This document shows, one piece after another, positions 53,224-54,580 of a DNA stretch of 64,000 nucleotides. Each line of letters opens with the position of its first letter. Position 1 is the first letter of the stretch. The notes under the pieces are model-generated. The model saw only the letters and a list, made by a program, of their open reading frames with translations. It did not search any database and was not told where the DNA came from. The DNA comes from Candidatus Omnitrophota bacterium (GTDB lineage: Bacteria > Omnitrophota > Gorgyraeia > Gygaellales > Profunditerraquicolaceae): NCBI GenBank assembly GCA_028712255.1, contig JAQTQJ010000008.1:7773-71772 (forward strand), read 5' to 3'. The translations under genes were made by a program, and so were the position numbers.

Positions 53224-53291
53224 TTATTGACAATTTTCTAGAATAAGTTAGAATATTTTATCAAATAGTAATCATTAACAAAGGAGGAAAA

Positions 53292-53684
53292 GTGAGAAAA
53301 GGTTTTACTTTAATCGAATTAGTAGTAGTTATCATAATTGTTGGAGTTCTGGCATCGATAGGTTTAACCCAGTATACTAAAGTGGTGGAAAAAGGCCATG
53401 CAGCTGAAGCAAGGACAATATTAGGTTCTTTGAGGAGTTTACAGATAGCTGCCAATCTTGAGAATGGTGCTTATGAAACAAATATGGCTAACTTAGATGC
53501 TTCTATCCAGACCGCTTGCGCAACTGGTACACATTATTTTACTTATGCTTGCGCTGCAAGCGGTACATGTACTGCTACCAGATGTACTACTGCCGGTAAG
53601 GCTCCTGTAGGACCCTCAGCTTATACTAAAACTTTAGCAGTTGATGGTACATGGGGTGGTACAGGCGTGGCATTAGGATATTAA
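53292..53684 (+). CDS. pilA: type IV major pilin, copy 1
   Basis: 130 aa; GTG start after AAGGAGG; MRKG|FTLIELVVVIIIVGVLASIG class III signal (Gly-1, Phe+1, Glu+5); 4 Cys in C-terminal half; Thr/Ala/Gly-rich. Confidence 0.88.
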   Translation: MRKGFTLIELVVVIIIVGVLASIGLTQYTKVVEKGHAAEARTILGSLRSLQIAANLENGAYETNMANLDASIQTACATGTHYFTYACAASGTCTATRCTTAGKAPVGPSAYTKTLAVDGTWGGTGVALGY

Positions 53685-53750
53685 ATACTAATAAATATAA
53701 CTATTTAATAATTACTTGATGGCTACCTTTTTTAATAAAAAGGAGGAAAA

Positions 53751-54143
53751 GTGAGAAAAGGTTTTACTTTAATCGAATTAGTAGTAGTTATCATAATTGT
53801 TGGAGTTCTGGCATCGATAGGTTTAACCCAGTATACTAAAGTGGTGGAAAAAGGCCATGCAGCTGAAGCAAGGACAATATTAGGTTCTTTGAGGAGTTTA
53901 CAGATAGCTGCCAATCTTGAGAATGGTGCTTATGAAACAAATATGGCTAACTTAGATGCTTCTATCCAGACCGCTTGCGCAACTGGTACACATTATTTTA
54001 CTTATGCTTGCGCTGCAAGCGGTACATGTACTGCTACCAGATGTACTACTGCCGGTAAGGCTCCTGTAGGACCCTCAGCTTATACTAAAACTTTAGCAGT
54101 TAATGGTACATGGGGTGGTACAGGTGCGGCATTAGGATATTAA
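53751..54143 (+). CDS. pilA: type IV major pilin, copy 2 (D121N, V127A relative to copy 1)
   Basis: identical to copy 1 except two residues. Confidence 0.88.
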   Translation: MRKGFTLIELVVVIIIVGVLASIGLTQYTKVVEKGHAAEARTILGSLRSLQIAANLENGAYETNMANLDASIQTACATGTHYFTYACAASGTCTATRCTTAGKAPVGPSAYTKTLAVNGTWGGTGAALGY

Positions 54144-54178
54144 ATACTAATAAAATATAACTATTTAATAATTACTTG

Positions 54179-54580
54179 ATGGTTAAGAGCTTTACTCTAG
54201 TTGAAATATTAGTAGTGCTTATAATTATGGGTATCTTGGCTGCCTTGGCTTATACTAATTTTGGCACACCTACGGAGAAGGCTTTAGATAAGGAAGCAAG
54301 AGCAACTCTGGCACTTATGCGTGCTGCAGAGAGGATCTATAAGATGGAAGTTGGTGATAATTACTATCCATATGATTCTTATGTTTCTACAAGCAATGTC
54401 AGCTTAATAAACACTAATTTAAGGCTGAGTTTACCTACTGCTGCATCACCGAGATGGACTTACAGTATAAATAACGCTTCTTCAACTGGGATTGTTCAGG
54501 CAGCCAGATCAGGTAGGACTTGGTCACTTGATTCATCGAGTGCCTCTGAGGATCCAGCCTGCACCGGTTCTTGTCTGTAG
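54179..54580 (+). CDS. type IV pilin-like protein (minor pilin) with Ser at -1
   Basis: MVKS|FTLVEILVVLIIMGILAALA; Glu+5 present; C-terminal Cys pair (PACTGSC). Confidence 0.7.
   Translation: MVKSFTLVEILVVLIIMGILAALAYTNFGTPTEKALDKEARATLALMRAAERIYKMEVGDNYYPYDSYVSTSNVSLINTNLRLSLPTAASPRWTYSINNASSTGIVQAARSGRTWSLDSSSASEDPACTGSCL

Follow-up and report, generated by a model that had tools for sequence, protein, structure and literature searches.

Two nearly identical prepilin genes stand head to tail behind pilC in the stretch of DNA analysed here (the window, 64,000 nt of contig JAQTQJ010000008.1). The question they raise is whether this is a genuine duplication of a pilus subunit gene, how recently and by what route it arose, and what it might do for the cell. 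Their products, MDD5108858.1 and MDD5108859.1, are encoded by neighbours in a Candidatus Omnitrophota metagenome-assembled genome (MAG), on a contig of 78,930 nt. We conclude, with a probability of about 0.7, that the locus holds a real and very young tandem segmental duplication of a type IVa (T4a) major pilin gene at the end of a pil operon. The features that matter most are the following (SD, Shine-Dalgarno sequence; ORF, open reading frame).

53227–53254, + strand: sigma-70-like promoter, TTGACA-N16-TAGAAT, 11/12 matches, the best site in 52800–56200
53280–53725, + strand: repeat unit 1, 446 nt, with SD, pilin ORF, 3′ flank and next-gene start remnant
53292–53684, + strand: major pilin copy 1, 130 aa, MRKG↓FTLIE..., D118 and V126, MDD5108858.1
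53716–53754, + strand: duplicated next-gene start remnant (TTGATGGCTA), which opens a 12-codon mini-ORF (LMATFFNKKEEK*)
53726–53738, + strand: junction filler CCTTTTTTAATAA, 13 nt, between units 1 and 2
53739–54185, + strand: repeat unit 2, 447 nt, same make-up as unit 1
53751–54143, + strand: major pilin copy 2, 130 aa, N118 and A126, MDD5108859.1, the sole copy on Logan contig SRR22315506_433973

The head-to-tail direct repeat was confirmed by the ORF list, a repeat finder, pairwise alignment and base-by-base comparison, and has a period of 459/460. Each unit carries an SD (AAAGGAGG) with a GTG start 4 bases downstream, a pilin ORF of 130 codons, a 3′ flank of 32–33 nt and 10 nt, TTGATGG[C/T]TA, from the beginning of the following prepilin gene (true start at 54176/54179). 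The units are identical over their first 363 nt, and all five differences fall within the last 84 nt, by the filler. These are 53643 G in copy 1 against 54102 A in copy 2 (D118N); 53666 C against 54125 T (synonymous, Gly125); 53668 T against 54127 C (V126A); one additional A in copy 2 at ~54152; and 53723 C against 54183 T, within the duplicated start remnant. A 446-nt repeat at ~99% identity is far beyond chance and, with a whole gene repeated head to tail and a novel junction identifiable, this is a tandem segmental gene duplication. The original prediction for this locus, made from the sequence alone, had described almost identical tandem units with ribosome-binding site and full pilin ORF, bounded by the start of the next pilin gene. 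The repeat finder and alignments, and the TTGATGG remnant found in each unit, bear this out. Its two amino-acid changes are real but had been numbered D121N and V127A (precursor numbering gives D118N and V126A). Its list of differences contained the extra A but left off the synonymous Gly125 change and the start-remnant substitution, and where it placed a 16-bp insert at the junction the alignment gives the 13-nt filler.

The junction has some further properties. The TGA of the mini-ORF LMATFFNKKEEK* overlaps the GTG start of copy 2 on translation, an arrangement that might have functional relevance. The CCTTTTT of the filler can pair with AAAAAGG (53737–43) over the copy 2 SD, with a minimum free energy of −10.6 kcal/mol and a z-score of −1.3 against shuffled sequences. 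We therefore set this hairpin aside as a regulatory element: the 7-bp stem is present, but a z-score of only −1.3 is not significant. The idea that the filler is a templated inverted copy is also weak, because pre-existing sequence pairs with only 5/7 of the stem bases.

The tandem is unlikely to be a product of assembly, a doubt that had been raised with the original prediction. The unique junction (…TTGATGGCTA-CCTTTTTTAATAA-AAAGGAGG…) joins the pilin 3′ flank to the pilin SD, and since an assembler cannot invent unique junction sequence, at least one genome in the sample has the tandem. Two Logan contigs add population data. Contig SRR22315506_433973 (L001) bears the exact copy 2 protein and consists of window positions 52500–53279, unit 2 and 54187–54573, with 0 differences over 1615 nt; that is, it is an exact single-copy haplotype. 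Contig SRR22315508_2474832 (L021), from a sibling run, is 100% identical to 54072–55784. Its first base, 54072, lies exactly 30 nt (k−1) ahead of the first single-nucleotide difference specific to copy 2, and its first 30-mer occurs twice in the window but its first 31-mer once. A contig start of this kind is what a fork in a k=31 de Bruijn graph leaves, and both 3′ variants therefore coexist in SRR22315508. Exact-protein look-ups with copy 1 and with PilC found no contig.

Together, the Logan contigs suggest that one sibling sample contains the two-copy form, which is rare or missing in another. As L001 is single-copy and L021 is forked, pilin copy number is probably polymorphic in the natural population. 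The event seems so young that its junction, an ancestral-type single-copy haplotype and the two-copy form coexist in sibling samples. The locus could thus serve as a natural marker of dynamics at the strain level, and selection may act here on the quantity or the surface of the pili.

The duplicated gene encodes a T4a major-pilin-like protein. Both ORFs begin with a prepilin N-terminus, MRKG↓FTLIELVVVIIIVG (MRKG↓FTLIELVVV), typical of class III signal peptides, which scores 28.9 bits with Pfam N_methyl (cutoff 21.2) and 34.0 bits with TIGR02532 (cutoff 16.3). The leader of 4 aa and mature length of 126 aa lie within the T4a range (leader <10 aa, mature protein ~120–160 aa). An AlphaFold2 model built with 57 homologs (mean predicted local distance difference test score, pLDDT, 91.4; predicted template modelling score 0.77) has the lollipop fold of such pilins, with a 52-residue N-terminal helix (residues 7–58) and four strands. 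Its least confident part is residues 121–130 (mean pLDDT 73). The best Foldseek matches in the PDB are T4a major pilins (probability 0.96–1.0), with gonococcal pilin (1ay2/5vxx) at probability 1.0 and meningococcal PilE, D. nodosus FimA and PAK pilin also leading. A profile search of PDB sequences gave Myxococcus PilA at 1e-11 and gonococcal pilin at 3.5e-10, with GspG at only 4.6e-4. The GspG, PilA_Myxo, Pilin_GH and ComP_DUS models gave only sub-threshold matches to the pilin. We rejected GspG, the major pseudopilin of type II secretion systems, as an identity: TIGR01710 matched the N-terminal 70 residues only, at 37.7 bits where the cutoff is 88.85, and there was no T2SSG Pfam match.

The pilin genes are encoded with type IV filament assembly genes (PilMN, PilO, secretin, PilB-like ATPase and PilC directly upstream). 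The product of copy 1 is best described as a pilA-like subunit of the major type, because its gene is the first pilin gene behind pilC, the promoter-like site and SD in front of that gene are the strongest of the region, and T4a major pilins are closest to it in sequence and fold. A filament role is suggested by gene position, promoter and SD, and closest matches, in agreement with the original prediction of a major pilin. Compared with structured T4a pilins, which are its best matches (N. gonorrhoeae PilE 1ay2/5vxx, M. xanthus PilA 8tj2, P. aeruginosa PAK 1oqw and D. nodosus FimA 3sok), the window pilin shares the short leader, G↓FTLIE motif, long α1 helix and 4-stranded sheet. It differs in its smaller domain (126 aa mature), with an identity of only 21–23% and a template modelling score of ~0.5–0.58, and in having four Cys residues in a clade-specific C-x10-C-x5-C-TATR-C core, where the structured pilins have a single C-terminal D-region disulfide. 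In a search of 5.8 billion proteins, nothing beyond the MAG itself and the Logan contig exceeded 75% identity to the pilin. We also set aside the idea of a conductive e-pilin. Aromatic residues (F, Y, W) make up 9/126 mature residues, or ~7%, and the aromatic density usually expected of e-pilins is higher. The peptides that distinguish the two copies are TLAVDGTWGGTGVALGY and TLAVNGTWGGTGAALGY.

How old is the pair? The number of synonymous substitutions per synonymous site (dS) between the copies is 0.010 overall, compared with 0.15–1.2 in paralog pairs of related genomes. This makes it by far the youngest pair in the clade, and the claim that the duplication is very recent holds. L002, the sister lineage judged by PilC (85% identity), has a single major-pilin copy. 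The junction is without useful microhomology and contains filler, which indicates joining by an illegitimate or replicative route; its appearance is unlike that of an unequal crossover involving conserved pilin 5′ ends. In the mechanism we propose, the 446-nt segment, which takes in the SD, the pilin ORF, its 3′ flank and 10 nt of the next prepilin gene, would have been copied head to tail by illegitimate recombination or a replicative template switch, an event that would have left the 13-nt filler behind.

The expression layout points to a shared transcript. The promoter-like site follows pilC and precedes copy 1, a short way outside the repeat unit, and is the only strong one in the region. 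No terminator-like structure was found on the + strand before 56152, including between the pilin copies, in a scan of 52800–56200. Copy 2 has its own SD and start but is without its own promoter. As the sole strong promoter-like site precedes copy 1 and no terminator separates the copies, both are most likely transcribed on one mRNA, and translation of each would begin at its own GTG behind an identical SD. Relatives share this arrangement: in 11/12 genomes of the clade an 11–12/12 promoter and a strong SD precede the first major-pilin copy, while later copies score 6–9/12. The immediate effect of the duplication would be to roughly double the coding capacity for the most abundant pilus subunit; a second would be to supply an extra subunit that differs at two C-terminal residues. 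The 363-nt identical stretch could serve as a substrate for RecA-dependent deletion, more amplification and gene conversion, and for this reason copy number is expected to be unstable. The GTG start lies merely 4 nt past GGAGG in both copies (53288–53294 and 53747–53753), while relatives have ATG and a 6-nt spacer. One could speculate that weaker initiation per copy favours a duplication that raises dosage.

Tandem major pilins are common in the relatives of this organism. Scanning the GTDB representative genomes with PilC yielded 17 Omnitrophota loci, 11 of them scorable. One major-pilin gene follows pilC in five (L002, L005, L006, L009 and L013), two in another five (L007, L008, L010, L011 and L018) and three in one (L004). 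Paralogs within a genome are always mutual closest relatives, with 84–97% amino-acid identity (98% in the window) compared to 57–84% between genomes. Since junction types vary among genomes and the duplicated states are scattered over the PilC tree, several independent duplications are implied. In L007 (11329–12080), L008 (6308–7070) and L018 (589–1350) the second copy starts 1–3 nt past the stop of the first, without an SD, which suggests translational coupling and is a junction type unlike that of the window. In L004 (2400–4300) a minor pilin sits between copies 1 and 2, in a 912-nt unit, and the third copy is a chimera with the leader of the minor pilin (QGPMLKKNGFTLIE...) on a major-pilin body; pilin genes therefore recombine through their conserved 5′ ends.

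Divergence within these pairs is mosaic. Third-position identity over the N-terminal, middle and C-terminal segments is 95/59/96% in L010, 100/100/74.5% in L004 and 50/24/77% in L018, against a between-genome mean of ~50/40/43%, and dS by segment is 0.07/0.82/0.05 in L010 and 0/0/0.44 in L004. In permutations of the longest identical tract, P was ≤0.005 for the window pair and for the pairs of four related genomes. Because both third-position identity and dS are mosaic within pairs, the pattern indicates partial gene conversion. Residues 43–72 (the α1 end and α–β loop) usually diverge most, and there the nonsynonymous rate (dN) reaches 0.28 in older pairs; positive selection was not detected, dN/dS being <1 for each segment in all of the pairs. 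In this clade the major pilin gene is thus a hot spot of duplication, deletion and gene conversion. A single process could account for this: tandem duplications would recur, downstream copies would stay promoter-less, and gene conversion would partly homogenize them while divergence accumulates mainly at the surface-exposed α1 end and α–β loop, the window pair being the newest instance. The claim that such arrays allow copy-number change and recombination is supported by the single-copy haplotype, the fork in the sibling run and the mosaic paralogs; the antigenic switching that was named with it does not fit in its Neisseria-type form, as both copies are complete.

Several observations weigh against a simple recent duplication with a dosage effect. 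The two-copy call comes from assembled contigs and not from reads, so that there could be two copies or at least three. A collapse could explain L001, with the short path through the end of copy 1 and the junction clipped as tips at low coverage (~5–10%), and a mixture of two single-copy alleles would also yield the fork in L021. Co-transcription and the dosage effect are drawn from consensus scans, and the filler hairpin over the copy 2 SD might lower translation of copy 2, although the fold is not significant. Lastly, the clustering of the five differences (P ~2e-4; P = 0.003 for the coding part alone) does not fit clock-like divergence, and gene conversion, an imported allele or error-prone repair is also needed. 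The differences lie by the junction while 3.3 kb of shared flanking sequence shows no variation between datasets, and so they are not simple drift after duplication. They may be the unconverted remainder of an older pair, a patch imported by recombination, or errors of the repair or replication that formed the junction.

The first of these origins leads to the alternative that survives best, although we consider it rather unlikely. Here the duplication is old, a conversion tract has homogenized the SD and the first ~120 codons, the 3′ differences are what was left unconverted, and the single-copy haplotype arose by RecA-mediated deletion. The clustered differences would be explained directly. 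Conversion mosaics are the rule in the clade, and copies 1 and 2 of L004 have the same architecture, with the 5′ two-thirds 100% identical and the divergence confined to the C-terminal segment; L001, moreover, exactly matches the expected product of a crossover between the copies. However, the non-coding 3′ flank and the non-functional start remnant are still ~95% identical (2 changes in 42 nt), which argues that the unconverted part is young as well. That the sister lineage L002 is single-copy, and that this junction type is found in this genome only, also speak for a recent duplication.

A broader idea, which we offer tentatively and think improbable as it stands, is that the tandem co-transcribed paralogs of the clade form a standing system for pilus diversification. 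Duplication and partial conversion would hold the N-terminal helix and four-Cys core constant, and the surface segments (α1 end, α–β loop and C-terminal tail) would diverge and exchange. If so, cells could vary the surface of their pili or mix several surfaces, and might in this way, for instance, escape phages that are specific for pili or suit their pili to various host or prey cells in an episymbiotic lifestyle; the window would then show such a pair newly formed, while the population is still polymorphic for it. T4a pili occur in nearly all Omnitrophota and have been linked to attachment to hosts or predation (PMC10066038).

Less probable still is that the window pair itself is already a functional two-pilin system, with alternative or co-assembled subunits, or with recombination between the copies switching the pilus surface, and not mere dosage or neutral duplication. 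Both amino-acid differences do fall in the C-terminal tail, the least confidently modelled part, and the C-terminal region of T4a pilins is generally surface-exposed. Older pairs in relatives differ mostly at residues 43–72 and are homogenized elsewhere, and the near-identical tandem major pilins of S. sanguinis (94% identity) are functionally non-interchangeable (PMC11121087). Set against this, there are just two conservative-to-moderate substitutions, and the dN/dS of ~0.7, from 3 substitutions, is uninformative; the values below 1 in all segments of all pairs give no sign of selection for change. In addition, both copies are full-length genes of the expressed type, with no silent cassettes, invertible segments or recombination signals. 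We know of no experimental data for any Omnitrophota pilus.

In Neisseria, pilin sequences in cis (pilE/pilS) are reshuffled by gene conversion, which conserves the N-terminus and varies surface segments; the pilS copies are silent, lacking a promoter and 5′ end. The likeness to the window lies in the multiple cis pilin sequences and non-reciprocal recombination. We rejected an antigenic variation system of this type, because both window copies are complete, translatable genes with identical SD and start codon and not silent cassettes. Unlike pilS, the copies here each encode a full prepilin with its own start codon, in most cases accompanied by an SD or tight coupling; conversion mainly homogenizes them, and no dedicated element for initiating recombination was identified.

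The closest analogue is S. sanguinis, where, as here, complete major pilin genes stand in tandem and copy number is variable. Its pil operon has 2–3 of them (pilE1/pilE2 in strain 2908; pilA1–pilA3 in SK36 and CGMH010), with a number that varies by strain, and paralogs are >90% identical within a strain and less so between strains (PMC11121087). The authors attribute them to gene duplication, and the N-terminal halves are identical (PMC11121087). The differences are considerable: S. sanguinis is a monoderm Firmicute with another pilin family, while the window comes from an uncultivated diderm; the window pair is far younger (98% amino-acid identity, dS 0.01), with its duplication junction still visible; and pilin function in S. 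sanguinis was tested experimentally, while the window pair is known from sequence. Legionella pneumophila pilA1/pilA2 and similar loci also combine two related major-type T4 pilin genes at one locus; in Legionella, PilA2, and not PilA1, is confirmed in the pilus (PMC13170364). Paralogs of this type are anciently diverged and functionally distinct, in contrast to the nearly identical window pair, in which the 3′ flank and SD were duplicated along with the gene. What the window holds is thus a genuine but ordinary gene duplication, in a lineage in which such duplications and gene conversion are routine. As similar tandem major pilins are well described in cultivated bacteria, the general view of pilin evolution is unchanged.

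An assembly artefact, in which two strain alleles of a single-copy gene were joined or the repeat was mis-resolved by a short-read metagenome assembler, is very unlikely: the source is a MAG contig (related MAGs have SPAdes-style contig names), the 363-nt exact repeat is longer than short reads, one Logan assembly yields a single-copy contig and two alleles are also compatible with the L021 fork, but assemblers do not create unique junction sequence, a two-copy tandem with distinguishable 3′ ends should be a single Eulerian path in the de Bruijn graph and hence be resolved correctly, and related genomes that were assembled independently often have major-pilin genes in tandem.

The pilin itself belongs to a family that the locus defines for this clade, marked by a C-x10-C-x5-CTATRC core that hardly varies and by disulfides that are probably nested. 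Its Cys residues, C76, C87, C93 and C98, are all kept in 55/57 homologs; C87, G91, C93, T94 and R97 are invariant, and CTATRC is found in 49/57. The sole homologs without the full set are P0022 and P0073, paralogs on one 16.6-kb contig. They have lost C76 and C98 together (V...I and A...L) and kept C87 and C93, and the shared loss in both tandem paralogs is consistent with concerted evolution. Judged from Cys covariation among the 57 homologs, which is effectively one evolutionary event, nested disulfides C76–C98 and C87–C93 are probable. The original prediction had named four Cys and two probable disulfides, and the residues are present and the pairing plausible, given the joint loss of C76 and C98. 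Its suggestion that the T/S/G-rich stretch is an O-glycosylation target did not stand. This stretch is the most conserved part of the globular domain and is modelled as a β-hairpin (strands 83–87 and 93–97), and the placing of the conserved four-Cys segment in that hairpin identifies it, on conservation and the predicted model, as structural core and not a low-complexity glycosylation tail. No Wzy_C/PglL-like or glycosyltransferase domain was found among the Pfam-scanned ORFs of ≥100 aa in the window, and the gene after the major pilins is another prepilin and not a glycosylation enzyme; pilin glycosylation is thus not supported by anything in the window sequence. One homolog, P0017, bears the Joint Genome Institute (JGI) name 'CxxxxCH...CXXCH cytochrome family'. 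We rejected heme binding, as the residue following C98 is never His in the 57 homologs.

The pilin copies are flanked by the following genes, in the order pilMN–pilO–(pilP?)–pilQ–pilB–pilC, the two major-pilin copies and then three more prepilin genes.

46161–47708, + strand: PilM–PilN fusion, 515 aa; Pfam PilM_2 1.4e-12, PilN 9.7e-8; TIGR01175 pilM 1.8e-16
47710–48237, + strand: PilO-like assembly protein; Pfam PilO 1.1e-7, 32.5 bits (cutoff 22)
48241–48684, + strand: small ORF in the PilP position (pilO–secretin gap); sub-threshold Pfam matches only (Y4YQ_C, CdsD_C, T2SSB)
48727–50262, + strand: PilQ-like outer-membrane secretin; Pfam Secretin 3.5e-38, Secretin_N, STN; TIGR02515 PilQ 1.6e-58, ahead of GspD 3.3e-54
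50273–51988, + strand: assembly ATPase of PilB/GspE type; Pfam T2SSE 7e-138, N-terminal MshEN 8e-19
51988–53223, + strand: platform protein PilC/GspF; Pfam T2SSF 4.4e-55, in two stretches; GspF and PilC models about equal
54176–54580, + strand: next prepilin, minor-pilin type, 134 aa from TTG or 133 aa from ATG 54179; N_methyl 25.1 bits
54587–54961, + strand: prepilin, minor-pilin type, 124 aa; N_methyl 35.2 bits; weak N-terminal similarity to PilV, ComGE and GspI/J
54975–55649, + strand: prepilin-like protein with a longer leader, 224 aa; N_methyl 15.9 bits (sub-threshold); kept in L006 and L010

In the fusion protein PilM_2 occupies residues 42–210 and PilN residues 420–508. The ATPase scores 618 bits with TIGR02538 PilB and 606 bits with GspE, both slightly below the equivalog cutoffs. 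Its MshEN domain, which binds cyclic di-GMP, is also matched by NF053729 (68.8 bits), and pilus assembly may accordingly be under cyclic di-GMP control. The exact 133-aa product of the 54176–54580 prepilin gene is present on L021. Neither pilD nor a PilT-family gene (for the retraction ATPase expected of a T4a pilus) was found in the window; a T4a pilus is still compatible with this, since pilT may be encoded elsewhere. Past the last prepilin gene, the ~560 nt of 55650–56210 contain no ORF of ≥100 aa, tRNA or Rfam match. The first terminator-like hairpin on the + strand, at 56152–56171, may mark the end of the pilus operon.

The remaining window is housekeeping in character: it encodes ribosomal proteins, RecG, UvrA and enzymes of fatty-acid, arginine and lysine biosynthesis. 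Scanning the whole window for tRNAs and Rfam families returned nothing, and hence no RNA element or integration site at the locus. A 147-aa ORF at 23443–23886, between rplM–rpsI and arginine biosynthesis genes, matches the C-terminal part of rve only (4e-7, sub-cutoff) and is probably a transposase remnant. Over 58000–64000 the GC content falls to 33–34% and the AT skew climbs to ~0.10–0.14; the ORFs there have no family matches but a weak one to Phage_rep_O (58867–59658, 2.9e-4), and the segment may be an integrated mobile element or phage remnant. All family-assigned ORFs of ≥100 aa lie on the + strand and the cumulative GC skew climbs monotonically (1–64000), which indicates that the genes of the window are extremely co-oriented with one replichore.

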